DNA of 63,923 bases, counting the filler, from an uncultured bacterium (GTDB lineage: Bacteria; CAZDME01; JAYEMH01), in NCBI GenBank assembly GCA_964506785.1. It is 5 parts of 5 records of this genome, joined end to end, with 100 filler letters (N's around TTAATTAATTAA, not from the genome) between each part and the next. Parts side by side here need not be neighbours in the genome. Positions count along the whole stretch, not along the records: positions 47,318 to 62,186 come from CAZDME010000032.1; 4 more parts are not named here. The stretch is one strand, 5' to 3'. The position numbers were made by a program, and so were the translations under genes. Positions 47,218-63,923 of this stretch are shown piece after piece (position 1 is the first letter of the stretch; every line of letters starts with the position of its first letter). The notes beneath the pieces were generated by a model. It had not been told where the DNA came from. It did no database searches and worked only from the letters and a program-made list of their open reading frames with translations.

Positions 47218-47317
47218 NNNNNNNNNNNNNNNNNNNNNNNNNNNNNNNNNNNNNNNNNNNNTTAATTAATTAANNNNNNNNNNNNNNNNNNNNNNNNNNN
47301 NNNNNNNNNNNNNNNNN
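47218..47317. other. Assembly gap / contig linker
   Basis: N run containing TTAATTAATTAA. Confidence 0.99.
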
Positions 47318-48061: not shown

Positions 48062-48088
48062 ACCTTTATAACCAAAAAGGAAGGGCTA

Positions 48089-48871: not shown

Positions 48872-48883
48872 AAAAAAGGATGC

Positions 48884-49771
48884 CTATTTTGCATCCGTCA
48901 CTTCTTTATATTTCTCGAAATCTATTTTTTTATGTGTTCTGGCTTCGGCCAACTCCCAGACATATTTGTAAAGGTGGAGCCCTTTACTTAATGCCACTAT
49001 TTCTCCGTCCGCAACGCCAATCTCATCGGCCATAAACTTCTTCACCAGTTGTAATCCGGCCAGATTTGAAGGAAAGCCGCTCCAAAGATCCCAGGAACGA
49101 AAATAAATAATAAAATGGAGTTTGCCGTATCGGATCCTCGTATCAATTAAACGCAGGCAGGGCGGGTCTTGCAGGGTGATGTCCGGAGGCATGCCTATCT
49201 CTATTGTTTCCTGATTGGTGCCAAAGCCTCTTTCTTTATAGTCTTTTATAACCTGCTGAAACGGATTAACATTAAATGGTATTTCCTTGCCTAATATAAT
49301 TTCCTTATCGCTTTTTTTAACAGCAATAGTATAGGGATATAATTCTTTAATTTGTCCATCGGTTAATTCATCCAAGGATATTCCTGTTTTTCCTTTAATC
49401 TTTTGTATATCCAAAGTTTCTTCAAGCCTGGCTTTGGGATTGTGAATTCTTTCTCCATAGGTGTAATCCTCCCCTTGGGCTTTCTGGTCAGTCATAAGAT
49501 AGGGCAGGTAGGTTTCATTTACATACTTCATATCGGTTGGGGAGGGGATTCCCGAGCCCTCAGGCATTATTGGTATTATCGGTTCTCTCCCCGGATTTTT
49601 CACTCTGATGACGACAAAGTCGAACCCCAGTCTTTCTTCTTCGTTTTCGAAGCTTCCCTTTGTTATTTTGTATCTAAAGCCATGGTCAAGGATTTTGCTG
49701 ACAGCTTGAAACCAGGCATCATCCAGATTAAAAGCTTCTATATGGACTATGTCTAAAAGTTTCTCTTCCAT
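48884..49771 (-). CDS. thyA: Thymidylate synthase (archaeal-like ThyA)
   Basis: YTYGER, DPPCL, FRSWD..GFPSN, LHLY. Confidence 0.85.
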   Translation of the reverse strand: MEEKLLDIVHIEAFNLDDAWFQAVSKILDHGFRYKITKGSFENEEERLGFDFVVIRVKNPGREPIIPIMPEGSGIPSPTDMKYVNETYLPYLMTDQKAQGEDYTYGERIHNPKARLEETLDIQKIKGKTGISLDELTDGQIKELYPYTIAVKKSDKEIILGKEIPFNVNPFQQVIKDYKERGFGTNQETIEIGMPPDITLQDPPCLRLIDTRIRYGKLHFIIYFRSWDLWSGFPSNLAGLQLVKKFMADEIGVADGEIVALSKGLHLYKYVWELAEARTHKKIDFEKYKEVTDAK

Positions 49772-49967
49772 CTTTTGATTTAGAAACAACAGTCCGTTTT
49801 TTAGTTAGAATCGGTTAGTATTGTAACCGAAAATCTATTTCTGTTCAAGAAATTTCATTAAGACGGGATGGGCAAGAAAATCCCTTTTTTGTTTCTTTCC
49901 CGGCCGCTTCGGCTCCGGCAGAAATATTGTTTGGATAGCGTTTTTTGAGTTAATCCGCAAGATTTTA

Positions 49968-49996
49968 TTGAGAAGTTAAAAGAGGAATGGTATAAT
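49968..49996 (+). promoter_or_regulatory. Sigma70-type promoter
   Basis: TTGAGA, 17 bp spacer, TG-n-TATAAT. Confidence 0.65.
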
Positions 49997-50063
49997 TAAG
50001 AGGTGTTTTTTGTCGCGCTAAAGCAGAAATTTACTTTTGTCCTCAGGAAGGGATTCGATAAAA

Positions 50064-50456
50064 ATGGCTAAATTTAAAATTAGTGAAAGATATAACAGTT
50101 TTAAATATGCGGCGAAGGGCATTTTTACAATGATACTTTCTCAACATAACGCCTGGATACATGCTCTAATTACTGTTTTAGCCGTTATTGCCGGTTTTTG
50201 TTTCGGGCTGACAAAACCTGAATGGTGCTGGATTATCCTGGCTATCATAACTGTTTGGACAGCCGAGACACTGAATACCGCTTTTGAATTTCTTTTAGAT
50301 GTTGCCTCTCCGGAATTTCACCCCTTAGCGGAAAAAGCTAAAAATGTTGCTGCCGGCGCCGTGCTTATTTCAGCCATTGGCGCGATGCTAATCGGCCTGC
50401 TAATTTTCAGCCCGCATATTATAAAAGCCTTGCAATTTAAACGCCACTTTTATTAA
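50064..50456 (+). CDS. dgkA: Diacylglycerol/undecaprenol kinase family protein
   Basis: SFKYA..G, N..IH, ETLNTAFE, AKNVAAGAV. Confidence 0.88.
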   Translation: MAKFKISERYNSFKYAAKGIFTMILSQHNAWIHALITVLAVIAGFCFGLTKPEWCWIILAIITVWTAETLNTAFEFLLDVASPEFHPLAEKAKNVAAGAVLISAIGAMLIGLLIFSPHIIKALQFKRHFY

Positions 50457-50472
50457 TCTTTATAAAACGAAT

Positions 50473-50886
50473 ATGGGCCTATACATATACTGCCTGAGAG
50501 AAGATTATATCTATAAATCTTCCATAAAAGGCCGCCAATTCGAAAATGAATGGTTTAAGTTAGAAAAGGACGGCAGAGTAATCGTTAAGGGTACCAACAG
50601 ACGTGGTTATGCCTGGGATGGTTGCAGCCCCAAGATTAAAATAAAGGATATTTATATCGGCATACCAGAAGCGGTGTTAAACTTTGACACAGGGAAAAGC
50701 AAAACATATTACGCCTCTTTAATTCACGATGTGTTTTATCAGTTTGCTAAAGACGTAAAATCAATTGTTGGACGCAAAGAAGTCGACAGGGAATTTTATA
50801 TTATTCTTAAAGAGAATAGATTCAGATTGGCAGAATTGTATTATGGGGTTGTGTTTCTTTTGGGATGGTTATTCTGGTATTTCTGA
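50473..50886 (+). CDS. DUF1353-like hypothetical protein
   Basis: GYAWDGCS, ASLIHD.FY, R.EVD.EF. Confidence 0.6.
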   Translation: MGLYIYCLREDYIYKSSIKGRQFENEWFKLEKDGRVIVKGTNRRGYAWDGCSPKIKIKDIYIGIPEAVLNFDTGKSKTYYASLIHDVFYQFAKDVKSIVGRKEVDREFYIILKENRFRLAELYYGVVFLLGWLFWYF

Positions 50887-51052
50887 TTCAGGTTAATTCT
50901 TGATTGAAAGATTTATTGAGTTTTGATTTAGAAAGTGGTAACATAGAGCTATCAGTTACGTTAATTTTCGGATGGTCTTTTTATGGTTGTGCGGGATGTT
51001 GCTTGCGCCCTTGGTGATATAGAGATATGGGTAAAAAAGACAAGGACCAGAA

Positions 51053-51763
51053 ATGAAGTCTTTAGATAGTAGACGGATAATAGACGGTTTAGCTAAAATA
51101 AGCGGCGCGATTACCTCCGATTTGTATTTAGAAGATATTCTAAAACTGATTATCGCAGTAAGTGCCGAAGTCATGAATTCAAAGATATGTTCGCTTATGT
51201 TATTCGATAATTCTGGCAAAGAGCTTATAGTCAAAGCCACTCAGTCTGTGAGTAAGGAGTATAATAAAAAGCCCAATATAAAATTAGGAGAGGGAATTGC
51301 CGGAAAGGTGGCCAAAGAAGGCAGACCGATAACGGTTGTCGATGTGCGTCAGGATAAACGCTATATCAATTCAAATATCGCCAGAAAGGAGAAGCTTTGT
51401 TCTCTTTTATGCGTGCCCCTTATTTTCAAAGGTAGAATAATCGGTGTATTAAATAGTTATACCTCAAGGCTTCATAAATTTAGCGAGAATGAAATCAATA
51501 TCTTAGAATCGATAGCCAATCAGGCGGCTATTGTTATTGAAAACTTTAGATTGGTTGTCGAATCCAAGGTTATCAAAGAGGAATTAGAAGCAAGGAAAGC
51601 GATAGAAAGAGCAAAGGGTATTTTAATGAAACAAGAGAATTTAACAGAGGAAAGCGCTTATAATCTTGTCAGGAAATACAGTATGGATAACCGTAAGAGC
51701 ATGAGGGAAATATCAGAGGCAATCATATTAACTGAAGAAATGAAGAAGTCCTCGCAAAAATAA
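51053..51763 (+). CDS. GAF-ANTAR RNA-binding antiterminator
   Basis: GAF (LGEGIAGKVA, SLLCVPL) plus ANTAR (LEARKAIERAKGILM..EESAY..RKYSMDNRKSMREISEAII). Confidence 0.93.
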   Translation: MKSLDSRRIIDGLAKISGAITSDLYLEDILKLIIAVSAEVMNSKICSLMLFDNSGKELIVKATQSVSKEYNKKPNIKLGEGIAGKVAKEGRPITVVDVRQDKRYINSNIARKEKLCSLLCVPLIFKGRIIGVLNSYTSRLHKFSENEINILESIANQAAIVIENFRLVVESKVIKEELEARKAIERAKGILMKQENLTEESAYNLVRKYSMDNRKSMREISEAIILTEEMKKSSQK

Positions 51764-51777
51764 GACAAAAATAAATC

Positions 51778-51806
51778 TTGACAATCTCAGGGGGTTGTGG
51801 TATATT
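51778..51806 (+). promoter_or_regulatory. Sigma70 promoter of the sigma-factor gene
   Basis: TTGACA, 17 bp spacer, TG-n-TATATT. Confidence 0.8.
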
Positions 51807-51820
51807 TATCCCGGAAGCAG

Positions 51821-52101
51821 GGCACAGAGTCAGTGCCTAGAAAAGGGCGAGGCGGCGTTCGAAAGAACGCCTTTTTTAATAGGGCCGCAATTTACGGAAC
51901 GAAGTGAACGTAAATTGGGAGGCCGGATTAATCCCGAGCGGAGTCCTGGGCAAAACCAGGAATCTCAAACAGCCCTTTTTTCATAGTTAGAAAAAGCGGA
52001 TAAAGACGTCCTTTTTAGTAGCAAGGTCTGCTAGGAAGGGCGTTTTTCTTTTTGGAACAACGGCGTTCTACTGCCTTGAAAAGGTGAAGAACGCCTTTTT
52101 T
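51821..52101 (+). promoter_or_regulatory. Leader with three ANTAR-type dual-hairpin + terminator units
   Basis: P1 loops AGAGTCA (51826), ATAGTTA (51983), AAGGTCT (52023); P2 loops AAAGAC (52002), AACGGC (52059), first P2 degenerate; terminators with T runs ending near 51877, 52053, 52101. Confidence 0.8.
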
Positions 52102-52121
52102 ATTTTTGGGAGTGGTTGGAT

Positions 52122-52679
52122 ATGGATTTTGAGGGATTATTGGAAAAAATATCTCCAAGATTAAAAAGAATAGCAACGAAGTGTAATGGCCATGGTTCTT
52201 TCATTGATAAGGAAGACCTATACCAGGAGATGTGTATTTATCTATGGGAGAACTATCGAGAAGGGCAACCTTGCGGCATAAACGAAGCCTACATAGTGAA
52301 AGGTTGTGAATTCCATATATTGAACTACCTCAGGACGGAAAGAGAAAAGGCAAGAATTGTAAGTTTAGAAGAACCTATTAACGAGGAAGGAGATACCTTA
52401 AAGGATGTATTGCCGGACGGTAGAGAGTCATTGGATAAATTTATAGATAGGAAATTGGTTATCGAAGATATAAAAAATGACGGCTTCAGCAAGAGAGAAA
52501 AAGAAGTGTTTTTGCTTATATTGCAGGGCTATACGATACGAGAAATAGGAAAGAAATTAGATGTTTCGCATGTGATGGTCATCAAGCACAAACAGAGAAT
52601 AATTAAGAAGTGGCAGAAAAGGGAAGAAATACAGGTTACCAGCAGCCCCAAATATTTACTTTCTATAGTAGGAGCTTAA
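52122..52679 (+). CDS. Alternative RNA polymerase sigma-70 family factor (ECF/SigH-like, regions 2 and 4 only)
   Basis: DKEDLYQE..LWE (region 2), VSLEEPI, SKREKEVF..GYTIREIGKKLDVS (region 4 HTH). Confidence 0.88.
   Translation: MDFEGLLEKISPRLKRIATKCNGHGSFIDKEDLYQEMCIYLWENYREGQPCGINEAYIVKGCEFHILNYLRTEREKARIVSLEEPINEEGDTLKDVLPDGRESLDKFIDRKLVIEDIKNDGFSKREKEVFLLILQGYTIREIGKKLDVSHVMVIKHKQRIIKKWQKREEIQVTSSPKYLLSIVGA
52634..52661 (+). promoter_or_regulatory. Putative alternative-sigma promoter, copy 1 (amtB-glnK)
   Basis: GGTTACC-N14-TTTACTT with identical spacing at three loci. Confidence 0.75.
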
Positions 52680-52697
52680 AATTAGAAAATTGTAAAA

Positions 52698-52751
52698 GAC
52701 ACGTTGTTGTGTCAAAACAAAGGCGTTCTACAAAAGAACGCTTTTATTTTT
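52698..52751 (+). promoter_or_regulatory. ANTAR dual hairpin + terminator (amtB leader, unit 1)
   Basis: GACAC-GTTGTT-GTGTC; AAC-AAAGGC-GTT overlapping terminator GCGTTCT/AGAACGC-TTTT. Confidence 0.8.
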
Positions 52752-52760
52752 GACGGTTTA

Positions 52761-52841
52761 CCCCGTTAGAAATATTGGAAATAAAGGAAAAACTTTAAAG
52801 GGCGATGTTTCTAATGGAATGAGGTAGAGTTTCTAACGGGG
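52761..52841. mobile_element. Palindromic mini-element copy 3 (81 bp) in the amtB leader
   Basis: TTTA-CCCCGTTAGAAA...TTTCTAACGGGG-CTTA; degenerate inner end TTTCTAATGG. Confidence 0.8.
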
Positions 52842-52847
52842 CTTAGC

Positions 52848-52923
52848 TACGAAGTAAGTATTTATCTGGACGGAGGCGTCCAATTTAATGCCGCGATGGC
52901 AGGCAAGATTGGGCGCCTTTTTT
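52848..52923 (+). promoter_or_regulatory. ANTAR dual hairpin + terminator (amtB leader, unit 2)
   Basis: TAC-GAAGTAA-GTA; TGGAC-GGAGGC-GTCCA overlapping terminator GGCGTCCAATTT/AGATTGGGCGCC-T6. Confidence 0.75.
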
Positions 52924-52952
52924 GTTTGATGTGGAAAGGAGGAGGTAAAGAT

Positions 52953-54212
52953 ATGGAAGAGGCAATATATGCAAGTAGAGTAGGTTTAAATACGCTCTGG
53001 GTTTTGGTCGCCGCTTTTTTAGTTTTTTTTATGCAGGCTGGATTTGGTATGGTCGAGGCTGGATTTATCCGGGCTAAAAATACCTGTAATATCCTTACCA
53101 AGAATTTTCTTGATTTCTGCATGGCCTCCCTGGGTTTTTTTATGTTTGGCTACGCAATTATGTTTGGTTCCGGGAATAGCTTATTTGGCCTAAAAGGATG
53201 GTTTTTGGTAGGGGCTGAATCGGGAGCAGATATACCTCTATATGCATTCTGGCTTTTCCAGGCAGCGTTCTGTGGTGCCGCGGCAACTATAGTGGCTGGC
53301 GGAATGGCTGAAAGGATGAAGTTCTCAGCTTATTTAATATATTCCTTTATTATATCGGCTTTTCTTTATCCGATTGTTGGGCACTGGATTTGGGGAGGCG
53401 GCTGGCTGGCAAGATTAAATTTTGCTGATTTTGCCGGTTCTACAGTTGTCCATACCGTAGGAGGATTCGCCGCTTTAGTCGGGACAATTATTTTAAAACC
53501 GAGAATAGGAAAGTATAAACCAGACGGCACGGCTAATGTTATCGCCGGGCATTCTATCCCTCTTGCATCGTTAGGTGTGTTTATTCTATGGTTTGGTTGG
53601 TTTGGATTTAATCCCGGCTCCACACTGGGAGTTGGTAATGGAGACCTTATAGCCCGAGTGGCAATTAATACTAATTTAGCAGCGGCAATGGGTGGAATAT
53701 TGGCTATGGGTATAGTCTGGAAGATGTTTGGAAAACCCGATTTATCTATGGCAATGAATGGAGCTTTGGCAGGACTGGTAGCCATTACCGCTCCTTGTGC
53801 ATTTGTTGAGCCTTGGGCAGCTATTGTCATAGGAGCTATCGGAGGCATTATTGTAGTTTTAGGTGTCGTGGTGTTGGATAAATTTAAAGTCGATGACCCT
53901 GTGGGCGCGGTTGCCGTCCATGGTTTTAATGGAATATGGGGAACCCTGGCTATAGGTTTATTCGGAGAGAAGGCATTGGGTTTAGCAAATAACGGGCTAT
54001 TTTATGGCGGCGGCTTTAAACAGCTTGGAATACAGGCTCTGGGGGTTTTGACCGTAGTCCTGTTTATTATAGTTACTATGGGAGCTGTCTTTAAATTAAT
54101 AGATATCTTTATCGGCCTTAGAGTTTCCAGAGAAGAAGAACTAAAAGGATTAGATATCGGCGAGCACGGCATGGAGTCTTATGCCGGCTTCCAGATATTT
54201 ACTACAGAGTGA
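52953..54212 (+). CDS. amtB: Ammonium transporter
   Basis: [52 protein letters not shown] before ATG 52953. Confidence 0.96.
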
Positions 54213-54231
54213 TGAAGGGAGGGTAAAGAAG

Positions 54232-54573
54232 ATGAAATTAATAATCGTAATGATACAACCACATAAATTACCTGATGTCAAAAAGGCGCTATATGATGCC
54301 GAGGTTTATAAAATGACAGTTAGTAATGCTTTGGGATGCGGCCAGCAAAAAGGCTATACCGAAACTTATAGAGGTGTTATTCACGAAGTCAATCTACTTA
54401 AAAAAGTGAGATTAGAGATAGCCGTTAATGAGGATTTTGTCCAGCCAACCATTGATGCCATCATTAAAGGCGCCAAGACCGGCAATATCGGCGATGGCAA
54501 GATATTTATTTTGGATTTGCCCGAGTGTATACGAATCAGGACAGCTGAGCGTGGAGGGAAGGCTATTGGATAA
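54232..54573 (+). CDS. glnK: P-II nitrogen regulator
   Basis: G.GQQKG...[17 protein letters not shown]; directly after amtB. Confidence 0.92.
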
Positions 54574-54612
54574 TACTAAAATGGAGGTGGTCGGCAAGCT
54601 CGCCATCTTTCG

Positions 54613-54686
54613 CCCTTCGATTCCACTCAGGACGAACACTGAACGAAGTCGAATGTGTTCGGGCCATCTTGAGCAAAATCGAAAGG
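54613..54686. repeat. REP-like interspersed palindrome (CCCTTCGA...CTCAGG / CTGA..TCGAA)
   Basis: Nested inverted repeats; related sequence at 5091-5127. Confidence 0.55.
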
Positions 54687-54712
54687 TTACCAAAAAGGGC
54701 GATTTTTTACTT
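54685..54712 (+). promoter_or_regulatory. Putative alternative-sigma promoter, copy 2 (glnA-GOGAT operon)
   Basis: GGTTACC-N14-TTTACTT. Confidence 0.75.
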
Positions 54713-54733
54713 AACATAGTAGAGCAAAGAGCG

Positions 54734-54812
54734 AGAGCACAGGGTTTGTGCTCTTTAGTATCAATGACAAAGATGTTCTAAGCGGTGTTGCGCTTGGAAC
54801 GTCTTTTTTTTT
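54734..54812 (+). promoter_or_regulatory. ANTAR dual hairpin + terminator (glnA leader)
   Basis: AGAGCAC-AGGGTTT-GTGCTCT; GAC-AAAGAT-GTT overlapping terminator AGATGTTCTAAGCG/CGCTTGGAACGTCT plus T run. Confidence 0.85.
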
Positions 54813-54828
54813 AAAAAGGAGGGAAGAA

Positions 54829-56163
54829 ATGGCTAAAAAGACAAAAGAAGAAATTTTAAAAGTAGTAAAAGAACAAGATGTGAAGTTTATCCGTCTCTGG
54901 TTTACAGATATCTTGGGCCAGGTGAAAAGCTTTGCCATTACCGATGGCGAATTAAAAAATGCCTTGGAGAATGGAATGGGATTTGACGGGTCCTCAATAA
55001 CGGGTTATCAGTCTATCGAAGAAAGCGATATGTTAGCCGTGCCAGACCCAGCCACTTTTCAGATTCTTCCCTGGAGACCGCAGGAAAAAAAGGTTGCCAG
55101 GATGATTTGTGATATTCTTACGCCTGAGAGAAAACCTTATGAGGGAGACCCGCGTTATGTTTTAAAAAGAGCTTTAGAACGAATGAAAAAAATGGGATTT
55201 AATCATTATTATCTGGGGCCAGAATTGGAATATTTCTACTTCAAGAATAATGCCTCAAGCACCGATATACTGGATAAGGGAGGGTATTTCGATTTAACTA
55301 CTCTGGATGTGGCCAGCGACCTTCGCCGGGATACAATCCTGGCTTTGGAATCCATGGGTATTCCAATAGAATACTCCCACCATGAAGTAGGTCCAAGCCA
55401 ACACGAGATTGATATGAGATACACCGATGCCCTACAGATGGCCGACCATGTTATTACTTACCGAATAGTTGTCAAAGAGATAGCCCAGAAATATGGAGTC
55501 TATGCTACGTTTATGCCAAAGCCTTTGTTCGGCCAAAACGGAAGTGGAATGCATACGCACCAGTCTTTGTTTAAAGGCGACAAAAACGCCTTCTTTGACA
55601 AAGATAATAAGTACCATCTATCCGATACAGCCAATAAATTTATTGCCGGTCAGCTCAGGCATGCGCGAGAAATGAGTGCTATTTTTGCGCAATGGGTGAA
55701 TTCATATAAGAGGCTTGTTCCAGGATACGAGGCGCCGGTTTATATCGCTTGGTCAAAAAGAAACCGTTCAGCTCTAATTCGCGTACCCGTATACCACCCA
55801 GGCAAGGAGAAAGCTACACGGGCCGAACTTAGATGTCCCGACCCAGCCTGCAACCCTTACCTTACCTTTGCGGTAATGCTTCAGGCAGGGCTGGAAGGGG
55901 TAGAGCGAAAATACAAACTTCCCGAGCCGATGGAAAAAAATCTATATCATTTATCCAGCGAAGAAAGAAAGGAGTTGGGTATCGAATCTCTGCCTGACAG
56001 TTTAGGAGAAGCGGTTCTCATTACCGAAGGAAGCGGGCTTGTTAAGAAGGCTTTAGGGGACCATGTGTTTACGAGATTCATAACATTGAAAAAAAAGGAC
56101 TGGGAAAATTATAGAATACAGGTTACAAAGTATGAGCTGGACAATTTTCTCCCTATATTATAA
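54829..56163 (+). CDS. glnA: Glutamine synthetase type I (copy 2, regulated)
   Basis: FDGSSI, EESDM, HHEVG, TFMPKP, NGSGMH, SYKRL, NRSALIR; AGGAGG RBS before ATG 54829. Confidence 0.96.
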   Translation: MAKKTKEEILKVVKEQDVKFIRLWFTDILGQVKSFAITDGELKNALENGMGFDGSSITGYQSIEESDMLAVPDPATFQILPWRPQEKKVARMICDILTPERKPYEGDPRYVLKRALERMKKMGFNHYYLGPELEYFYFKNNASSTDILDKGGYFDLTTLDVASDLRRDTILALESMGIPIEYSHHEVGPSQHEIDMRYTDALQMADHVITYRIVVKEIAQKYGVYATFMPKPLFGQNGSGMHTHQSLFKGDKNAFFDKDNKYHLSDTANKFIAGQLRHAREMSAIFAQWVNSYKRLVPGYEAPVYIAWSKRNRSALIRVPVYHPGKEKATRAELRCPDPACNPYLTFAVMLQAGLEGVERKYKLPEPMEKNLYHLSSEERKELGIESLPDSLGEAVLITEGSGLVKKALGDHVFTRFITLKKKDWENYRIQVTKYELDNFLPIL

Positions 56164-56282
56164 ATGATAATAATTATTAAGTATATCCCATCGTTTTTCC
56201 ATTGAGCAGAAAGGGAAAAAATAGAATAATAAAAAAATTTATCTCATCGTGCTTAAATTTTAGGCATGAAGATAACGGAGAT

Positions 56283-57446
56283 ATGATGGAGGCTAAAGTT
56301 AAATTCCAAGAAAAGGACATAAGCGGCTGTGCCATAGTCGGCATAATGGATAAAACGGGCAAAAGGTCTTCTGGTAAAGATATTATTACCTCAATTGCCT
56401 CTATGCGCGACCGTGCCAATGGCTTAGGCGGCGGATTTGCCGCTTATGGAATTTATCCCGAACACAGAAACGACTGGTGTTTTCATATGATGTTTGAGAA
56501 TAAATCCAGCCTGGTTCAGACGGAAGAATATCTTAAGGATAATTATAAAATAGTAAAAGATGGGATTATACCTACAAGAGAAGATAAATCCATAAGGTAT
56601 CGGCCTCTACTATGGCGGTATTTTCTGCAACTCAAGGTAGAAAAGACAAAGCTATATTACGATTTAACAGAAGAAGATTTTGTGGTGAAGACAGTAATGG
56701 AGATAAACACCAAAATCCCCGGGGCTTTTGTCGCCTCGAGCGGTAAAAATATGGGCATATTTAAAGGAGTGGGGTATCCAGAAGATATCGGAAGATTTTA
56801 CAGATTAGAGGAATACGAAGCCTATATCTGGACAGCGCACGGTCGGTTCCCTACAAATACAGTCGGTTGGTGGGGGGGGGCGCATCCCTTTGGCCTTCTG
56901 GATTGGTCGGTTGTGCATAACGGAGAGATTTCCTCTTATGGAATTAATAAAAGGTTTCTGCTAAATTACGGATATATCTGTGCATTTTTTACTGATACCG
57001 AAGTGATAACTTATCTTTTTGACCTTTTGGTTAGAAAACATAACCTTTCTTTTGAGGTAGTCGCAGATATACTGGCAGCTCCCTTTTGGGACGAAATAGA
57101 CCCCGTTAGAAATACCAATGGGTCTAATAAAAGAGAAAGAATTTCTAACGGGGTAGAAAGGCAGCCACAGGGAAAAAAAGAATTTCTAAAGGCACTTCGT
57201 ATAATTTATGGCAGCGCCCTGGTTAATGGCCCTTTTAGTGTTATTCTTGCCAATTCCTCTACTATGGTAGGGTTAAACGACCGAATAAAGCTTCGGCCTT
57301 TGGTGGCGGCAACTTCGGGCGATAAAGTTTATATTGCCTCTGAAGAATCAGCCATCCGGGAGGTTTGTCCTGGCCCGGATAAAGTGTGGATGCCTGAGGC
57401 AGGAAAGCCAGTTGTCGGCAGGCTTATTGAGGTAGAAAATGGCTAA
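56283..57446 (+). CDS. Class II glutamine amidotransferase, GOGAT subunit (GlxB/GltB1-like)
   Basis: GCAIVG N-terminal Cys, R.NGLGGG, HGRFPTN, HPF, HNGE, TDTE, DRIKLRP. Confidence 0.9.
57101..57153. mobile_element. Palindromic mini-element copy 4 (53 bp), in frame within the amidotransferase
   Basis: TAGA-CCCCGTTAGAAAT...ATTTCTAACGGGG-TAGA; 53+4=57 bp; adds [19 protein letters not shown]. Confidence 0.9.
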
Positions 57447-59007
57447 GAGACCGATACCCCCAGAATTTATTGTAGAAAGAGACGATGAGAAATGCGTTGC
57501 CTGTCAGGCTTGCGTTAGGATGTGTGCTAATGATGTACATTCATACGATCCTGAGACTGATACAATATCGTCTGACAGCGCCGAATGCGTTGGCTGTCAT
57601 TTTTGTGAAACTTTCTGTCCTGCTGGCGCGATTACAATAAAACGCAATCCCTCTGAGTTTAAACTAAATGCTAACTGGAATGCCCAGGTAATCAAAAATA
57701 TTACTAAACAGGCAGAAACCGGGGGAGTGTTACTTACCGGAATGGGCTCTGATAAGCCTTATCCAATTTACTGGGACCATATTGTCCTTAATGCTTCACA
57801 GGTAACTAATCCTTCAATCGATCCTTTGCGTGAACCAATGGAGCTGCGTACTTATATCGGAAGGAAGCCGGACAGAATCGAATTTAGCAGTCAGAAAACA
57901 GAAGACAGAAATCAGAAAAAGAAAAAGGAAGAGAATCTGTCGCCTGACATCTGTCATCTGACATCCGGGATTCCGCCACAACTAAAATTAGAGACTCCGA
58001 TTTTATTCAGTGCAATGAGTTATGGTTCAATAAGTCTTAATGCTTGCAAGTCGCTTGCCAGAGCGGCGCAAGAAATGAGGACTTTTTATAATACCGGTGA
58101 AGGCGGACTTCATAAAGAGCTGTATAAATACGGTCCTAACACGATTATCCAGGTAGCTTCGGGAAGATTTGGAGTGCATAAGGAATATTTGGAAGCAGGT
58201 TCTGCGATTGAGATAAAAATTGGCCAGGGGGCAAAGCCTGGAATTGGCGGGCATTTGCCAGGAGAAAAGGTGTCGGAAGAAATCAGCCAGACCAGAATGA
58301 TACCGGTTGGGACCGATGCCTTGTCTCCCGCGCCTCACCATGACATTTATTCCATAGAGGATTTGAAGCAGTTAATCTTTGCCTTGAAAGAAGCGACACG
58401 ATATAAAAAACCAGTAGGGGTGAAAATCTCTGCGGTGCATAATGTCGCTCCTATTGCCTCCGGTATAGTCAGGGCAGGGGCAGATTTTGTCGCCATAGAT
58501 GGTTTACGAGGCGGAACAGGAGCGGCTCCGCAAGTTATAAGAGATAATGTTGGCATTCCTATCGAGTTGGCAATTGCCGCAGTAGACCAACGCCTGCGAG
58601 AGGAAGGTATCAGGAATCAGGCATCTTTGATTGCCGGTGGAGGTATAAGGTCCAGTTCCGACGCGATCAAGGCTATTGCTTTAGGAGCAGATGCCGTTTA
58701 TATCGGTACGGCCGCTTTAGTGGCGATGGGGTGTAACCTCTGTCAGAAATGTTATACAGGGAAATGTAACTGGGGCATTGCCACCCAGGACCCTTATCTT
58801 ACTAAAAGGCTTAATCCAGATATAGGTGCGCAAAGATTGGTTAATTTGTTGCGTGCCTGGAGTTTAGAGATAAAGGAGATGCTCGGCGGCATGGGTATAA
58901 ATGCTATCGAGAGTTTAAGAGGCAACAGAGAACAGCTCAGAGGTATAGGACTGTCCGATACAGACTTGAAATTATTGGGCATAAAAGCGGCAGGTGAGGC
59001 ATGGTAA
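57439..59007 (+). CDS. FMN-binding glutamate synthase subunit with N-terminal 2x[4Fe-4S] (GlxD/GltB2-like)
   Basis: [48 protein letters not shown], Cx2Cx2Cx4C. Confidence 0.93.
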
Positions 59008-59103
59008 CGCGCCTTCGGCGCGAGTTTTCAGTTGACAGTTAACAGAAGACAGAAAACAGCAAAGTGTAAACACGTCTTGTGAACAATACAATAGAGAAAA
59101 GAG

Positions 59104-59547
59104 ATGAAGAAGATAATAATCAGAGAAGAATATTGTATGGGATGCAGACTTTGCGAAGTTCATTGCCTGGTGCAGCATTCTAAAACGAAGAATATAATCA
59201 AGGCATACAAAGGAGAATATCCGAAACCAACTCCAAGAATTATCGTGGAAGAAAAAGGGTATGTTTCATTTGCGCTTCAGTGCCGGCATTGTGAAGATGC
59301 CCCATGTTTAGAGGCCTGCATAACAGGCGCACTGTATCGGGATAAAAAAATAGGGGCGGTTCTTTTAGACGAAGATAAATGTGTAGGCTGCTGGATGTGC
59401 ATTATGGTTTGTCCATTCGGGGTGATATCAAGAAATGTAGAAGGGAAAAAGATAGCTTCTAAATGTGACTTATGTATGGGGGAAGAAATACCCGTTTGCG
59501 TGAAAAATTGTCCTAACGGAGCGATAGTTTACGAGGAAAAGAAATGA
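59104..59547 (+). CDS. 4Fe-4S dicluster protein (HydN/CooF-like), GOGAT electron-transfer partner
   Basis: Four Cys cluster motifs; KCDLC. Confidence 0.9.
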   Translation: MKKIIIREEYCMGCRLCEVHCLVQHSKTKNIIKAYKGEYPKPTPRIIVEEKGYVSFALQCRHCEDAPCLEACITGALYRDKKIGAVLLDEDKCVGCWMCIMVCPFGVISRNVEGKKIASKCDLCMGEEIPVCVKNCPNGAIVYEEKK

Positions 59548-60878
59548 ACCCCGTTAGAAATCAAAATAACCCTGTAAGAAAACAAGATATTTCTAACGGG
59601 GTGAATTATGTAATTATTGGTAATTCGGCAAGTGGAATTGCATCCGTAGAAGCAATTCGCGAGTATGATAGGAAGGGTAAAATAACCGTTATATCTAATG
59701 AGGCGCAATTTAATTATTCACGGCCCTTAATATCGTATCTTTTAGGGAAAAAGGTGCCGATGGAGAGGATGCCTTTCCAGGCGAGAGATTTTTATAAGGA
59801 TAATAAAATAGATTTGATTTTAAATAAGGAAGCAACAAAATTGGATTTGGAAAGAAAATATGTAATTTTAGCCGATGGAGGAAAAATCCCTTTCGATAAG
59901 CTGCTTATTGCCACAGGAGGTAGACCGATTGTACCCGAAATTAAAGGGATGAATCTAAACGGGGTATTTACTTTTACCAATCTCGACGATGCCCAAAGGA
60001 TAGAAAGGCATATCAAGGCCAACAGGGTTAAAAGAGCGGTTGTCTTAGGAGGTGGGCTGATAGGGCTGAAAGCAACAGAGGCTCTTATCGAATTAAAGAT
60101 TAAAATTGCTATTGTAGAACTTGCGGATAGAATTTTATCGGCAACCTTTGACCGAAAGGCTTCACGTATAATCGAAACTGCTTTGGAAAAAATAGATTGC
60201 CGCGTTATTGCCAATAATACGATTGTCGAGATAAAAGGCAGGAACAATCAGGTGGAAGAGGTGATTCTAAAAGACAAGAAGAGAATCCCGGCAGAATTGG
60301 TTATCATTGCAATCGGCGTCAGCCCTAACGTGGAATTGGCGAAGAATAGCTCTATAAAGATGAATAAAGGTGTCCTGGCAGATAATTTTATGCGGACAAA
60401 TATCTTGGATGTTTATGCGGCCGGCGACTGCTCGGAAGCACGAGATTGTCTTTTAGGCAAAAATCGCCCTATTGCCATTTGGCCGGTGGCAAAAAGGCAA
60501 GGCAAAATTGCAGGTTTCAATATGGCCGGAATGAAAAGAGAATATCAGGGAAGTTTTGCCATGAACTCTGTAGAGCTATGCGGTATTCCTACTATTTCTT
60601 TAGGACAAACACTGTCTGAAGGAAAGGACTGCCGGATTTTAGAGCATTTTGATAAAAACAAGGCTATATACAAGAAGATTGTTCTAAAAAAGGGAATGAT
60701 TATCGGTATTATTTTCGTAAATGATATTGAGCGGGCAGGAATTTACGCCGGCCTTATTAAAGATAAGGTTGATGTAAGTGGTTTCCAAGAAAATCTTTTA
60801 AAAGAAGATTTTGGATTTATCAGTTTGCCCAAGGGATACAGAAAGCATCTGGTAACCGGAGAGGTCTCGACATTATGA
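59544..60878 (+). CDS. FAD/NAD(P)-dependent oxidoreductase (NirB-like N-domain), GOGAT partner
   Basis: IIGNSASG, DKLLIATG, LGGGLIG, YAAGD. Confidence 0.9.
   Translation: MNPVRNQNNPVRKQDISNGVNYVIIGNSASGIASVEAIREYDRKGKITVISNEAQFNYSRPLISYLLGKKVPMERMPFQARDFYKDNKIDLILNKEATKLDLERKYVILADGGKIPFDKLLIATGGRPIVPEIKGMNLNGVFTFTNLDDAQRIERHIKANRVKRAVVLGGGLIGLKATEALIELKIKIAIVELADRILSATFDRKASRIIETALEKIDCRVIANNTIVEIKGRNNQVEEVILKDKKRIPAELVIIAIGVSPNVELAKNSSIKMNKGVLADNFMRTNILDVYAAGDCSEARDCLLGKNRPIAIWPVAKRQGKIAGFNMAGMKREYQGSFAMNSVELCGIPTISLGQTLSEGKDCRILEHFDKNKAIYKKIVLKKGMIIGIIFVNDIERAGIYAGLIKDKVDVSGFQENLLKEDFGFISLPKGYRKHLVTGEVSTL
59549..59601. mobile_element. Palindromic mini-element copy 5 (53 bp), in frame at the oxidoreductase N-terminus
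   Basis: TGAA-CCCCGTTAGAAAT...ATTTCTAACGGGG-TGAA; removal gives MNYVIIG. Confidence 0.9.
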
Positions 60879-61774
60879 GCCCCGTTAGAAATTACGACAG
60901 CCAAAAAATGAAGAATGTTTCCAATGATAATTATAGTTTTGACAGATTTAGGTCAAGCAAATTTTCTAACGGGGTGAGAATAGATGCCAAGGGGATGTTT
61001 TATAAAGAACTCAATGAATTAATCCATCAGGCAGCGGATAGCGGGAAGAAAAATATTACTTTAGATAATGTCAATGGGCAGCGTTATATCGGGACCGGGC
61101 TATCTGGTGATATGAAAGTTACCATTAACGGAGTGCCGGGTAATGACCTTGCCGCTTTTATGGATGGACCGACCATTATAGTTAATTCTAACGGGCAGGA
61201 TGGTATAGGTAATACCATGAATGCCGGCAAAATCATTGTCCATGGCGATGCTGGCGATATTGTTGGCCATTCTATGCGAGGCGGTAAGATTTATATCGAG
61301 GGAAACACTGGCTATAGAATCGGCATCCATATGAAATCCTATAAGGATTTATATCCGGTTATAATAATAGGGGGAAACGTTAGAGATTTTTTGGGAGAAT
61401 ATATGGCTGGTGGACTGATAATAGTATTAGGGCTACACGGGGAAGAAGGTGTCAGGTATGAGGGATTAGGTGACAGAAAAAAAGATAAGCCCCAAGAATC
61501 CATAACCTACAACCCGTTACCTATAGTGGGTAGCTACTGTGGTACAGGTATGCATGGCGGGACAATATATATTCGCGGCAATATAGAAAATTACCGATTA
61601 GGCAAAGAGGTACAAAAGGGCAAGTTGAGTAAAGAGGACAATAAAATATTAAGGGCGTATTTGAAAGAATATTGCGCTTATTTTTCGCTGAACCCGGAAA
61701 ATATTCTAAAGAGCAGCTTCGTCAAGCTCAGTCCTTCAAGTTATCGTCCTTATGGGAAATTATATGCGTATTGA
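60875..61774 (+). CDS. GXGXG-domain glutamate synthase subunit (GlxC/GltB3-like)
   Basis: GQRYIG, GVPGNDL.AFMDG, G.TMN.G, FLGEYMAGG, GTGMHGG. Confidence 0.9.
   Translation: MSPVRNYDSQKMKNVSNDNYSFDRFRSSKFSNGVRIDAKGMFYKELNELIHQAADSGKKNITLDNVNGQRYIGTGLSGDMKVTINGVPGNDLAAFMDGPTIIVNSNGQDGIGNTMNAGKIIVHGDAGDIVGHSMRGGKIYIEGNTGYRIGIHMKSYKDLYPVIIIGGNVRDFLGEYMAGGLIIVLGLHGEEGVRYEGLGDRKKDKPQESITYNPLPIVGSYCGTGMHGGTIYIRGNIENYRLGKEVQKGKLSKEDNKILRAYLKEYCAYFSLNPENILKSSFVKLSPSSYRPYGKLYAY
60880..60974. mobile_element. Palindromic mini-element copy 6 (95 bp), in frame at the GXGXG subunit N-terminus
   Basis: TGAG-CCCCGTTAGAAA...TTTCTAACGGGG-TGAG; 95+4=99 bp; removal gives MRIDAKG. Confidence 0.9.
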
Positions 61775-61782
61775 TGGAAAGG

Positions 61783-61810
61783 GGTTACCAAAGAAGAGAA
61801 TTTTTTACTT
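61783..61810 (+). promoter_or_regulatory. Putative alternative-sigma promoter, copy 3
   Basis: GGTTACC-N14-TTTACTT. Confidence 0.75.
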
Positions 61811-61835
61811 TAATAATTAAAGACTAAATCCAAAA

Positions 61836-61909
61836 AACACAAAGTTAGTGTTGTAGATTGGAACGACGGCGTTCTTGAGCCTCATCGGTAGAGGTAAAAG
61901 GGCGCTTTT
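61836..61909 (+). promoter_or_regulatory. ANTAR dual hairpin + terminator
   Basis: AACAC-AAAGTTA-GTGTT; GAAC-GACGGC-GTTC overlapping terminator GCGTTCTT/AAGGGCGC-TTTT. Confidence 0.8.
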
Positions 61910-61932
61910 CCATTTTTGGCTCCGGGTAAGAA

Positions 61933-62181
61933 ATGACAGATATAAATGAGAAAATTTGGCTCAGAACGGCACTTTACGATGTGAAGAACCAAATGCGAGA
62001 AAACAACCTGGAAGGTTTTAAAGCCGTACTCAAGGTTCTATCCCGCGATTCCTTAAAAACTTTAGAAAATGCAGAGATGGAATGGACACTTGACCATGAT
62101 ACTCAGGAATTGAGAGAAAAATTCGATTTAGTGCGCCATTATTTGAATCACTTAAAGAGATTTTGCCAGAGAGTAGTCTGA
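61933..62181 (+). CDS. Hypothetical 82-aa helical protein
   Basis: Complete ORF downstream of the promoter and ANTAR leader; weak RBS. Confidence 0.6.
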   Translation: MTDINEKIWLRTALYDVKNQMRENNLEGFKAVLKVLSRDSLKTLENAEMEWTLDHDTQELREKFDLVRHYLNHLKRFCQRVV

Positions 62182-62186
62182 AGGGA

Positions 62187-62286
62187 NNNNNNNNNNNNNN
62201 NNNNNNNNNNNNNNNNNNNNNNNNNNNNNNTTAATTAATTAANNNNNNNNNNNNNNNNNNNNNNNNNNNNNNNNNNNNNNNNNNNN
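62187..62286. other. Assembly gap / contig linker
   Basis: N run containing TTAATTAATTAA. Confidence 0.99.
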
Positions 62287-62415
62287 AATGGGTTTAAAGA
62301 AGATAAGATAACAAGTATCGAAACTGAAATTAACAGTAAGATTAATGAAGCGGTCGCTAAGGCTAAGAAAGCGACATTTACCGGAGAATCTGAATTATAC
62401 GAAGGGGTATTTTAA
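62287..62415 (+). CDS. TPP-dependent dehydrogenase E1 alpha subunit C-terminus (partial)
   Basis: IETEINSKINEAVAKAKKA.F...ELYEGVF; stop overlaps the E1 beta start. Confidence 0.65.
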   Translation, partial: NGFKEDKITSIETEINSKINEAVAKAKKATFTGESELYEGVF

Positions 62416-63455
62416 TGAAAAAAATGACTTATTGCCAGGCTTTGAGGGAAGCGATGTTTCAAGAGATGGAAAGGGATCCTAATGTTTTTGTCTACGGAAT
62501 AGGTGTTCCGGACCATAAAGGGATATTTGGGACTACCTTGGGGTTGGCAGAAAGATTCGGCAAGGAACGTTGTTTCGATACGCCTCTTTCCGAAGATGGT
62601 ATGACCGGATTTGGCTTAGGTGCGGCTATTAATGGAATGAGGCCGATTCACATTCATATCCGAGTAGATTTCCTCCTTTTAGCTATGAATCAGTTAGCGA
62701 ATATGGTTTCATGCTACCGCTATACCTCCTGCGGAAAATTAAAAGTTCCTATGGTTATAAGGGCGGTTATCGGCCGGGGTTGGGGCCAGGGTTCGCAGCA
62801 TAGTAAAAGTATGTTGTCTGTTTTTGCCCATATTCCGGGGTTAAAGGTTGTTGTGCCAACCACCCCGAAAGATGCCAAAGGATTACTTATTTCAGCGATA
62901 AGGGATGATAACCCGGTGATAGTTATAGAGCACCGCTGGCTTTATTGGCAGGAAGGAGAGGTTCCCGATGGAGATTTTACCATACCTTTAGAAGAGGCCA
63001 ATATTTTACACCCGGGTAAAGATGTAACCGTTGTGGCTACCTCATGGTTGAATGTTGAAGCCCTTAAGGCAGCTGAAATTCTAAATAGAAGAGGCGTAAG
63101 CATCGAAATAATCGACCCCAGGACCATAGCTCCGTTTAATGATAGAATTATTATCCAATCGGTGAATAAAACCGGCCGGTGTATTGTTGCCGATAACGAT
63201 TGGCTGCATTGCGGCTTTAGTGCCGAGGTGGCCGCCCGGGTGGCTAAGGGTTCATTTGGAAAATTAAAATGCCCGATAGAGAGGATAGGGTTTGCCCCGA
63301 CACCCTGCCCGACGGTAAGGCATTTGGAAAATGAATTTTATCCTAATGCAGTTAAGATTATCCGTACCGTTGAGAAAATGATGAAATTAAGCCCGGCAGA
63401 TTTATCAAAAGAAGAGTTTTACAGCCACGAGAAAAGATTTAAAGGGCCGTTTTAA
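62415..63455 (+). CDS. Alpha-ketoacid dehydrogenase E1 beta / transketolase-like subunit (probably in a sugar/O-antigen cluster)
   Basis: DTPLSE, G.RPI, QHS, HIPGLKVV.P, DPRTIAP. Confidence 0.88.
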   Translation: MKKMTYCQALREAMFQEMERDPNVFVYGIGVPDHKGIFGTTLGLAERFGKERCFDTPLSEDGMTGFGLGAAINGMRPIHIHIRVDFLLLAMNQLANMVSCYRYTSCGKLKVPMVIRAVIGRGWGQGSQHSKSMLSVFAHIPGLKVVVPTTPKDAKGLLISAIRDDNPVIVIEHRWLYWQEGEVPDGDFTIPLEEANILHPGKDVTVVATSWLNVEALKAAEILNRRGVSIEIIDPRTIAPFNDRIIIQSVNKTGRCIVADNDWLHCGFSAEVAARVAKGSFGKLKCPIERIGFAPTPCPTVRHLENEFYPNAVKIIRTVEKMMKLSPADLSKEEFYSHEKRFKGPF

Positions 63456-63470
63456 AAAGAGGAATAAATT

Positions 63471-63923
63471 ATGGGTGAGGTGACAATAGAGGGTTTTGCC
63501 CGTTCCTTTGGAACGAACAAAGAAGATATTCCCTCGGAGTGCAAGCAATTAATTAAAGAAAACAACTTTAGATATAAGGTGCTTGCCGGAAAAAAACGGG
63601 ATAAAGTTATTTTGGATGTCCTTAAAAAAATTGCATCTGACCGGCAGGTTATCGGGGCAAAAGAAAGACAGGCCGTTTGGGAAAAAGGATGGATGGAAAA
63701 TCTCGATGAATTTATAAAAAGCGGTTATGATTTAAACAAATTGGTTCCAAAATTTATCAGGCCTAATCAGGTGATAAGGCTGAATCAAAATTATATAGAG
63801 CCGGTTAGCGCCAGCTTTGAATGCGATTATTTTTCAGTTTTTCGGCTTTGGCTTTTCAAAAAATATTTCGAGAGTTTTGAACACATCTATGAATTCGGCT
63901 GTGGCACAGGTTTTAATCTGGTG
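63471..63923 (+). CDS. Class I SAM-dependent methyltransferase (3' partial)
   Basis: Open to window end; IYEFGCGTGFNL motif I. Confidence 0.8.
   Translation, partial: MGEVTIEGFARSFGTNKEDIPSECKQLIKENNFRYKVLAGKKRDKVILDVLKKIASDRQVIGAKERQAVWEKGWMENLDEFIKSGYDLNKLVPKFIRPNQVIRLNQNYIEPVSASFECDYFSVFRLWLFKKYFESFEHIYEFGCGTGFNLV

Follow-up and report, generated by a model that had tools for sequence, protein, structure and literature searches.

How bacteria match the uptake and assimilation of ammonium to their nitrogen supply is answered in textbooks by NtrBC/sigma54, GlnR/TnrA, NtcA, AmtR or NrpR. The locus analysed here raises the question again for an uncultured bacterium (assembly GCA_964506785.1), of whose genome several parts were joined into a stretch of 63,923 nucleotides (nt), which as a whole is called the window below. 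At positions 51053-62181 of the window, a gene for a GAF-ANTAR protein and a gene for a small sigma factor-like protein stand in front of the ammonium transporter gene amtB, the P-II gene glnK, the glutamine synthetase gene glnA, the genes of a split glutamate synthase (GOGAT) and an open reading frame (ORF) of 82 amino acids (aa), named ORF82, and a Pfam scan of ten genes of this locus found no enhancer-binding protein and no kinase. What governs these genes? We consider it likely that the locus represents a conserved module by which bacteria of the Omnitrophota type control nitrogen assimilation, and in which the GAF-ANTAR protein would control the synthesis of the sigma factor and both would act on the target genes.

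A candidate sigma factor and the motif at its putative targets

Profile and fold comparisons indicate that the 185-aa protein encoded on the plus strand at 52122-52679 is an ECF-like (extracytoplasmic function, group 4) sigma factor with regions 2 and 4; the start given is the ATG shared by its relatives, and the frame is open from 52116. The general sigma70/ECF model of NCBIfam, TIGR02937, matches residues 5-168 with 61.1 bits against a cut-off of 42.9. In Pfam, GerE is the best hit (31.5 bits, above its cut-off), and Sigma70_r2 (22.6 bits) and r4_2 (21.5 bits) both fall just under their cut-offs. The AlphaFold model, for which 25 relatives were in the alignment, has two helical domains and a disordered linker, with a mean pLDDT (predicted local distance difference test) of 67.6, and among the matches listed by Foldseek against the PDB nearly all are sigma factors or sigma-containing complexes, the best having an E-value of 2.4e-6. 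The family is small and stands well apart from the bulk of ECF sigma factors (170 representatives at E<=1e-10, among 1.84 billion); its members are annotated merely as 'sigma-70 family RNA polymerase sigma factor', in metagenome-assembled genomes (MAGs) labelled Omnitrophota, Elusimicrobiota and Caldiserica.

An indication of what such a factor might recognise is a bipartite motif with the consensus GGTTACCA-N13-TTTACTT at the head of three co-directional units. For the pattern GGTTACC-N12-20-TTACTT the window has three copies, always on the plus strand, against 0.02 expected, and none of 100 shuffles reached three. The copies lie at 52634-52661 (GGTTACCAGCAGCCCCAAATATTTACTT), for amtB-glnK, at 54685-54712 (GGTTACCAAAAAGGGCGATTTTTTACTT), for glnA-GOGAT, and at 61783-61810 (GGTTACCAAAGAAGAGAATTTTTTACTT), for ORF82. 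The first falls within the final 46 nt of the sigma ORF, which runs through its own downstream promoter (52634-52679), so that the conserved C-terminal tail of the sigma proteins (..VT....YLL) is the translated GGTTACC...TTTACTT. An intergenic candidate for the amtB promoter, GGTTTACC at 52756, was rejected as a poor match to the motif, whereas the copy at 52634 fits both the other two copies and the relatives. Downstream of each copy in the window come a first hairpin, within 35-55 nt, a second hairpin and a terminator that takes in the 3' arm of the latter, and the target promoters have no sigma70-like -10 box. Since its spacing is fixed, its orientation single and its position shortly before the first transcribed hairpin, the motif looks like a promoter.

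The same motif accompanies the sigma gene in other genomes. Relatives were collected by a scan of one genome per species, which gave 58 loci, of which L001-L024 are close relatives (E at most 1e-30, most near full length, mostly from Omnitrophota MAGs); L025-L058 (34 of 58) were dropped as members of the sigma family, since only the C-terminal helix-turn-helix matched, at E 1e-6 to 6e-4. Of the 24 relatives, 20 have the strict motif, and three more have a one-base variant with unchanged spacing, namely AGTTACC in L015 and L019 and GGTTAAC in L024, the most distant sigma relative at 39% identity; the motif is always on the sigma strand. Taken together, the window and L001-L024 hold 31 strict copies, every one on the strand of the sigma gene and 30 of them with an identical span of 28 nt, and positions that the search did not require are also kept, as with position 7 (A after GGTTACC; 30/30) and position 22 (T two places before TACTT; 28/30). 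In most relatives a copy lies at or just past the sigma stop codon; the other sites are before amtB, before an unknown secreted protein preceding amtB, before glnA, or before the GAF-ANTAR gene (L017).

ANTAR-type attenuators in the leaders

The sigma gene itself appears to be preceded by a different kind of control region. A near-consensus sigma70-type promoter (TTGACA-17-TATATT with an upstream TG, 11/12 matches; plus strand, 51778-51806) starts 344 nt before the sigma start, and a terminator scan and minimum-free-energy folding placed three terminator-like hairpins with T runs between them, at 51854-51871, 52002-52047 and about 52062-52095. Before each terminator lies a small hairpin (P2), whose 3' arm is the 5' arm of the terminator, and a further upstream hairpin (P1) is present in the first two units only. 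Unit 1 (51821-51877, plus strand) consists of P1 GGCAC-AGAGTCA-GTGCC (51821-51837), P2 GGGCG-AGGCGG-CGTTC (51845-51860) and the terminator GGCGTTC-GAAA-GAACGCC (51854-51871) followed by T6. Unit 2 (51977-52053, plus strand) has P1 TTTTTC-ATAGTTA-GAAAAA (51977-51995), P2 GGAT-AAAGAC-GTCC (51998-52011) and a long terminator with a T run (52002-52047). Unit 3 (52054-52101, plus strand) has the hairpin GGAAC-AACGGC-GTTCT (52054-52069) and the terminator GGCGTTCT...AGAACGCC (52062-52095) with T6.

This leader is recognisably homologous, unit by unit, across the relatives. Equivalents of unit 1 are present in them, and GGATAAAGACGTCCTTTTT...AAGGGCGTTTTT of unit 2 is kept before the sigma gene in L001-L008, L010-L012, L016, L018 and L019. 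Of 25 sources, 19 have the promoter upstream of the sigma gene according to a regular expression for TTGACA-N16-18-TAnnnT; outside these, L004 and L007 have a TATAGT version when inspected by eye, L002 and L023 lack upstream sequence, L022 is coding there and L024 has a poor second box. A sigma70 promoter with ANTAR-type attenuators thus precedes the sigma gene in nearly all relatives.

Comparable units open all three target transcripts, with two before amtB, one before glnA and one before ORF82, all on the plus strand. The first attenuator of the amtB leader (52698-52751) has P1 GACAC-GTTGTT-GTGTC (52698-52713), P2 AAC-AAAGGC-GTT (52716-52727) and a terminator at 52719-52745 with a T run. The second (52848-52923) has a weak P1, TAC-GAAGTAA-GTA (52848-52860), then P2 GGAC-GGAGGC-GTCC (52868-52881) and the terminator GGCGTCCAATTT...AGATTGGGCGCC (52875-52917) with T6; its homologues were found in L002, L004, L005, L008, L011, L015 and L018. 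The glnA attenuator (54733-54815) is made of P1 GAGAGCAC-AGGGTTT-GTGCTCTT (54733-54755), P2 GAC-AAAGAT-GTT (54766-54777) and a terminator at 54769-54806 with T9. In the ORF82 leader (61836-61920), P1 AACAC-AAAGTTA-GTGTT (61836-61852) and P2 GGAAC-GACGGC-GTTCT (61860-61875) are followed by a branched terminator, GCGTTCTT...AAGGGCGC and then TTTTCCATTTTT. In all seven units of the window the 3' arm of the hairpin lies within the 5' arm of the T-run terminator, i.e., the two structures are mutually exclusive.

Pattern searches show how closely these hairpins are tied to the leaders. The P2-like pattern (a stem, a hexaloop R..GRY and a stem) has five sites on both strands of the 63.9-kilobase (kb) window, all of them in leaders, on the plus strand and with a T run within 55 nt. 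Over 346 kb of loci it occurs 57 times on the sigma strand as against three on the other; 50 of the 57 sites are followed by a T run (T5 or longer), 47 lie within defined leader zones, and a P2-like hairpin stands within 160 nt of 31 of 35 motif copies. The covariance model R1, built from 12 short-linker leaders (a joint MAFFT alignment with the long-linker leaders put P1 in two registers), gave 43 matches at E<=1 in the same 346 kb, of which 42 are on the sigma strand; its best match is amtB attenuator 1 at 47.5 bits. In the R1 alignment, both partners vary in seven of nine base pairs, and 87% of cells are paired, a level that none of 500 shuffles reached and that compares with 23-58% in slid registers, the matches being fitted to the model, so that the alignment leans towards structure. 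Because the model comes from short-linker leaders only, the long-linker (glnA-type) leaders score low or are missed. Five genomes without the sigma gene gave no R1 match, but with scoring confined to 150 candidates per genome this result is uninformative.

The published layout of an ANTAR target comprises two small hairpins with A at position 1 (A1) and G at position 4 (G4) of their hexaloops, of which the second competes with an intrinsic terminator (PMC3369931, PMC12591593). Among the seven P2-type loops of the window, six have G4 and five have A1; all P1 loops have G4, are often of 7 nt, and one starts with G. The hairpin pairs of the leaders may be ANTAR-type targets; their fit to that layout is good but not perfect.

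Several other features of the leaders were noticed. The linker between the hairpins of glnA-type leaders (54756-54765 in the window; also L008, L013, L020 and L021) often contains a conserved AAATAG. Structured inserts at 51878-51985 and 52760-52845 are missing from the closest relative, L001; the former resembles copies in the sigma leader of L021, the latter is bounded by a 12-bp inverted repeat (CCCCGTTAGAAA / TTTCTAACGGGG), and they may be small mobile repeats or additional regulatory RNA. Inspection by eye showed that in L006 and L022 the sigma leader or gene comes directly after the end of a nadE-like gene.

The sensor, the target genes and their occurrence in the phylum

The protein that would act on these hairpins is encoded next to the sigma gene. 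The 236-aa GAF-ANTAR protein (51053-51763, plus strand) matches Pfam GAF_2 with 87 bits (residues 26-163) and the ANTAR domain PF03861 with 68.4 bits against a cut-off of 27.3 (residues 175-225), and it has a GAF domain and no receiver domain. The nearest NCBIfam models of the GAF domain are those of PtsP and NifA; in the PDB its nearest relatives are the GAF domains of PtsP and Nlh1, and those of the ANTAR part are 6wsh, 1s8n and NasR (4akk). GAF regulators of the PtsP and NifA type respond to glutamine and 2-oxoglutarate. By analogy with these nearest GAF relatives, our guess is that the ligand might be 2-oxoglutarate or glutamine.

The remaining genes of the locus, identified like the others by Pfam and NCBIfam profile searches, all lie on the plus strand. 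The amtB gene (52943-54212; Ammonium_transp, 434 bits) begins with an ATG after an AGGAGG ribosome-binding site and is followed by glnK (54181-54573; P-II, 93 bits), by glnA (about 54830-56163; Pfam) and by five genes of the split GOGAT (56202-61774), which in Pfam correspond to GATase_2, Glu_synthase with Fer4, Fer4, Pyr_redox_2 and GXGXG. ORF82 (61933-62181) is the final gene before a contig junction; no Pfam or NCBIfam family matched it, and only three other proteins, with 64-68% identity, were found as homologues among 5.8 billion clusters. The locus ends at this junction, since two N runs flanking the TTAATTAATTAA linker (62188-62287) follow straight after ORF82.

Nitrogen genes accompany the sigma gene beyond this genome. 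The genes amtB, glnK, glnA or those of GOGAT lie downstream of it in 18 of the 24 relative loci, the order of glnA and five GOGAT genes recurs in L003 and L016, and no other regulator gene is conserved across the loci. The GAF-ANTAR gene is inside the fetched stretch in 10 of the 24 loci, several of the remaining ones being short contigs. An earlier note, made on the window alone, had described a GAF-ANTAR gene, a sigma70 promoter, a leader with three terminators and a sigma gene in series, and behind them three units that open with a common non-sigma70 motif and ANTAR hairpin/terminator units. The profile matches and the promoter and terminator scans bear out both descriptions, with one coordinate corrected, the first motif copy now being that at 52634 inside the sigma ORF. 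The note had also staked its reading on finding the same synteny and motifs in other genomes, and the counts above show that both recur there.

Co-occurrence was followed in 151 genomes taken evenly from the phylum of genome G001. The sigma gene is found in 24 of them, one copy each, and the strict motif in 38, of which 21 are among the 24 with the sigma gene and 17 among the 127 without it (Fisher p=1.5e-12); the latter rate is about that of a reversed-pattern control, i.e., of chance, and those matches are mostly unlike the consensus. Among the 39 matches in sigma-bearing genomes, 25, from 16 genomes, lie on the contig and strand of the sigma gene and within 6 kb downstream. Genome-wide, five related genomes contain 0-3 copies each (1-3 in four of the five), and G001 has exactly two, both in the nitrogen locus. 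Orthologues of the GAF-ANTAR protein were present in all five related genomes first checked, and at E<=1e-40, 93 of the 151 genomes have one, among them 23 of the 24 that bear the sigma gene, although the gene is unlinked to the sigma locus in some (about 20 kb away in G001, on another contig in G003). These distributions suggest that the control module is conserved across at least two dozen uncultured species, and that the antiterminator is the broader and probably older component, within whose range the sigma factor occurs.

Genomes without the sigma gene point to how else the same genes may be controlled. In G070, a GAF-ANTAR gene is followed by a glutamate-synthase-like gene, a TTGACA-N17-TATAAT promoter, a leader with several terminators and amtB-glnK-glnA, with no second leader before glnA. 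Between this promoter with its first two terminator units and the sigma leaders of L013 and L014, the mean column identity is 67%, and because the leaders are homologous, it appears that one conditional leader feeds the assimilation genes directly in the lineage of G070 and the sigma gene in another; the comparison is unrooted as to gain or loss of the sigma gene. In the sigma-less Omnitrophota G031, G035, G041, G111 and G149 (L078-L083), amtB is preceded by sigma54-type TGGCA-N6-CTTGC promoters. Of the 24 sigma-bearing genomes, 6 gave a match to the sigma54 DNA-binding domain, as against 76 of the 127 others (Fisher p=0.003, with lineage effects and MAG incompleteness uncontrolled), which hints that the new sigma factor may be favoured where sigma54 is missing. 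As side observations, G031, G035, G041, G111 and G149 carry the closest GAF-ANTAR orthologues (68-74% identity), and L078-L083 have a conserved pair of small hairpins (TACAAAAATGTA and GACnAATTCGT) after the sigma54-type promoter, near the ribosome-binding site and without a terminator.

Other observations concern the surroundings of the locus and of its counterparts. Between a sigma-type promoter with attenuator and amtB, L004 (10666-11412), L015 (10621-11433), L011 and L024 encode a 250-270-aa protein with a signal-peptide-like start; the two examined have no Pfam match, and the protein might be an outer-membrane channel for ammonium. An outer-membrane barrel protein of the window (48089-48871) was considered as its counterpart and rejected for want of similarity. 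An NAD-synthetase-like gene goes with the system elsewhere too: in L063 (G003 C18), one is preceded by a motif copy without hairpins. Upstream of the locus, a second nitrogen-related cluster (44548-48061) comprises an NAD synthase (44548-45318), a second glutamine synthetase (45342-46682, minus strand) and a P-II protein (47741-48061), and the pattern searches of the whole window found in it neither a sigma-type motif nor an ANTAR-type hairpin. A transketolase-like gene (62415-63455) lies past the contig junction and need not be a true neighbour of ORF82.

Proposed mechanism, alternatives and known systems

From the observed arrangement, conservation and co-occurrence of these elements we infer the pairing of each protein with its element, the signal and the logic of the circuit. 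The GAF-ANTAR protein would sense nitrogen status via its GAF domain and, when active, bind the small hairpin pairs in nascent leader RNAs. Such binding would prevent termination, because the second hairpin and the intrinsic terminator share a segment, 3' arm of the one and 5' arm of the other. The sigma factor would be made only while the antiterminator is active, since three serial terminators stand between the strong, constitutive-looking sigma70 promoter and the sigma gene. It would then direct RNA polymerase to the two or three GGTTACCA-N13-TTTACTT promoters that a genome has, before amtB-glnK, glnA-GOGAT and one small gene. As each target transcript opens with one or two ANTAR-type attenuators, the antiterminator would act both upstream of the sigma factor and alongside it. 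The elements of such a feed-forward loop are present in the window, where ANTAR-type attenuators precede the sigma gene and all three target units and a sigma-type promoter precedes all three, and likewise in relatives. In L003 (10470-10650) and L017 (10512-10680), a sigma-type promoter and an ANTAR-type attenuator also precede the GAF-ANTAR gene itself, an arrangement that would add positive feedback there.

Several points weigh against this reading. The Pfam models of the sigma regions score just below their cut-offs, and confidence in the predicted structure is only moderate. That the sigma factor reads the motif is deduced from adjacency and co-occurrence, and the Fisher p overstates independence because related genomes share the sigma gene and the motif by descent; in addition, the strict motif was unseen in 3 and the GAF-ANTAR gene in 1 of the 24 sigma-bearing genomes, all of them incomplete MAGs. 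No GGTTACC motif was found upstream of the sigma gene in the window or in the relatives and no anti-sigma gene nearby, the flanking genes being those of the GAF-ANTAR protein and AmtB, which is unusual for ECF sigma factors. The GAF-ANTAR protein is not specific to the sigma circuit, as its orthologues, found in 93 of 151 genomes, are far more widespread than the sigma factor. Several loops depart from the ANTAR rule, since P1 is often of 7 nt, some loops begin with G and the first P2 loop of the sigma leader carries C as its fourth base. Lastly, an Rfam scan of 48000-63923 at E<=1 gave no match in the locus, which is weak evidence as Rfam may hold no ANTAR-target family; its sole match was weak, CRISPR-repeat-like and outside the locus.

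The earlier note had read the circuit as a feed-forward AND gate. The wiring is supported by the co-occurrence of motif and sigma gene, by the leaders and by the presence of the GAF-ANTAR protein in 23 of 24 sigma-bearing genomes, whereas the sequence does not by itself imply AND logic. Strict gating of this kind is doubtful, since the units are co-directional and parted only by conditional terminators, which would allow transcripts started at the sigma70 promoter to read through into amtB and beyond. It is conceivable, if rather unlikely in our view, that the components act as proposed without any such gate: the sigma70 transcripts would read through to amtB-glnK, glnA-GOGAT and ORF82, and the sigma promoters would be internal boosters that amplify and prolong the response. 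The units run contiguously in one direction over 51.8-62.2 kb with the hairpin/terminator units as the only barriers, the end of the sigma ORF contains the first sigma-type promoter, and the homologous leader of the sigma-less G070 drives amtB-glnK-glnA directly, without a second promoter. Read-through, however, cannot serve the sigma-type promoters that lie on other contigs than the sigma gene (G120, G130, G024 and G038) or before the GAF-ANTAR gene (L017 and L003), and the conservation of a separate promoter at every unit suggests that it would be insufficient by itself.

The identity of the acting proteins can also be questioned. We regard it as improbable that GGTTACCA-N13-TTTACTT is read by another alternative sigma factor, or by a DNA-binding activator, that was co-inherited with the locus. 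The motif is linked to the sigma gene by association only, its core GGTTACC is nearly palindromic, as is often the case for sites of dimeric regulators, and the sigma gene has no motif of its own, unlike typical autoregulated ECF sigma factors; yet the spacing is fixed, the orientation strictly single, and the A/T-rich second box lies about 20-35 nt before the first leader hairpin, whereas in sigma-less genomes the motif is near its control rate (17/127) and no other regulator gene is conserved in the loci. Even less credible is the notion that the 185-aa protein is a LuxR/GerE-type activator working through its C-terminal helix-turn-helix with the sigma70 holoenzyme. Its best Pfam match is GerE, with the sigma models below their cut-offs, and its sequence matches in the PDB are mostly NarL/GerE-type domains with weak E-values, but TIGR02937 covers it end to end above the cut-off, N-terminal region 2 included, the fold matches listed are nearly all sigma factors or their complexes, and the target promoters lack the -10 box that a sigma70 holoenzyme would use. 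It seems about as improbable as a foreign reader of the motif that the hairpin/terminator units obey another RNA-binding protein or a metabolite bound to the RNA, or act as constitutive partial terminators under no control at all. Such a view would account for the deviating loops, the missing Rfam match and the genomes with an unlinked GAF-ANTAR gene (G001, G003), but it leaves aside the A1/G4 hexaloops and the terminator-overlapping second hairpin, both as published for ANTAR targets, as well as the GAF-ANTAR gene being adjacent in 10 of 24 loci and present in nearly every sigma-bearing genome. The reading in which the GAF-ANTAR protein controls the sigma factor and both control the targets therefore remains the one we prefer.

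We also put forward, tentatively and with somewhat more doubt than belief, a more far-reaching proposal. A previously unrecognised ECF-like clade would be a dedicated nitrogen sigma factor distinct from sigma54, with a regulon of two or three promoters (amtB-glnK, glnA-GOGAT and sometimes the gene of the regulator itself); its synthesis would be set purely by attenuation via a metabolite-sensing GAF-ANTAR protein, every target would be double-locked by that protein in a coherent feed-forward circuit, and the circuit would replace sigma54/NtrC in Omnitrophota that mostly lack sigma54.

How much of this is new can be judged from known systems. ECF (group 4) sigma factors are similar in being two-domain proteins of about 180 aa with a small dedicated regulon and a bipartite promoter of fixed spacing. 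Here, by contrast, there is no nearby anti-sigma gene, no autoregulatory promoter was seen, and a sigma70 promoter with attenuation would control the sigma gene. A cognate anti-sigma gene nearby and an autoregulated promoter are typical of ECF sigma factors, although not universal, and their usual promoter boxes are of the GGAAC / CGTC type, unlike GGTTACC / TTTACTT here. Control by sigma54/NtrC is similar in that a specialised sigma factor serves nitrogen-assimilation promoters, whereas neither its protein family nor its promoter is related to those here, where no enhancer-binding protein takes part.

Antitermination by ANTAR proteins is itself known. The EutV, NasR and AmiR systems share with the present locus the ANTAR protein, two small hairpins, whose loops here largely follow A1/G4, competition with a terminator and targets in ammonium assimilation; the locus differs in its GAF sensor, in having a sigma gene among the targets, in a special promoter instead of a housekeeping one and in several 7-nt P1 loops. 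The study of Ramesh et al. (2012, PMC3369931) predicts ANTAR leaders before genes for P-II proteins, ammonium transporters and glutamine and glutamate synthases, and calls the GAF-ANTAR class uncharacterised.

The closest parallel is the GnfL/GnfM - GnfK/GnfR cascade of Geobacter sulfurreducens, in which an ANTAR response regulator is switched on by a sigma54 activator and shares its target operons with that activator (Ueki and Lovley 2010, PMC2995071). Both cases are feed-forward nitrogen control in which an initiation regulator and an ANTAR antiterminator act on common operons and one controls the synthesis of the other. The hierarchy would be reversed here, since it is the ANTAR protein that would switch on the initiation factor, and the parts differ, with a two-component receiver (REC)-ANTAR protein and an enhancer-binding protein in the Geobacter account and a GAF-ANTAR protein and an ECF-like sigma factor here. 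In actinobacteria, ANTAR-target RNAs were described on the mRNAs of transcription factors in a two-step cascade (Mehta and Ramesh 2021, PMC8164766), which likewise places an ANTAR target on the mRNA of a regulator; that text concerns LacI/TetR-type regulators under mostly translational control, does not contain the term 'sigma factor' and describes no second ANTAR site on the targets of the regulator.

A literature search found no ANTAR-controlled sigma gene, nor this sigma clade, its promoter or the reversed hierarchy, in a coverage that excluded the supplementary target lists of Ramesh 2012 and Mehta 2021, which may hold a sigma gene. The claim that the whole architecture was undescribed thus stands in part: the dedicated sigma factor and its position in the loop were not found in print, whereas ANTAR leaders of nitrogen genes (Ramesh 2012) and the feed-forward cascade of Geobacter had already been published. 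The new part is the dedicated sigma factor and its position in the loop, not the concept of the regulon as a whole.

The locus suggests a further solution to nitrogen control in a large uncultured phylum. If the proposed circuit is true, it would provide a new pair of sigma factor and promoter with a very small, clean regulon, possibly of use as an orthogonal expression part, and a possible functional assignment for a GAF-ANTAR protein. It would also be a natural case of a feed-forward loop in which attenuation ranks higher than initiation, mirroring the Geobacter cascade, and would allow three designs for the same genes to be compared within one phylum, namely a sigma54 promoter, a sigma70 promoter with an attenuator, and a dedicated sigma factor with an attenuator.

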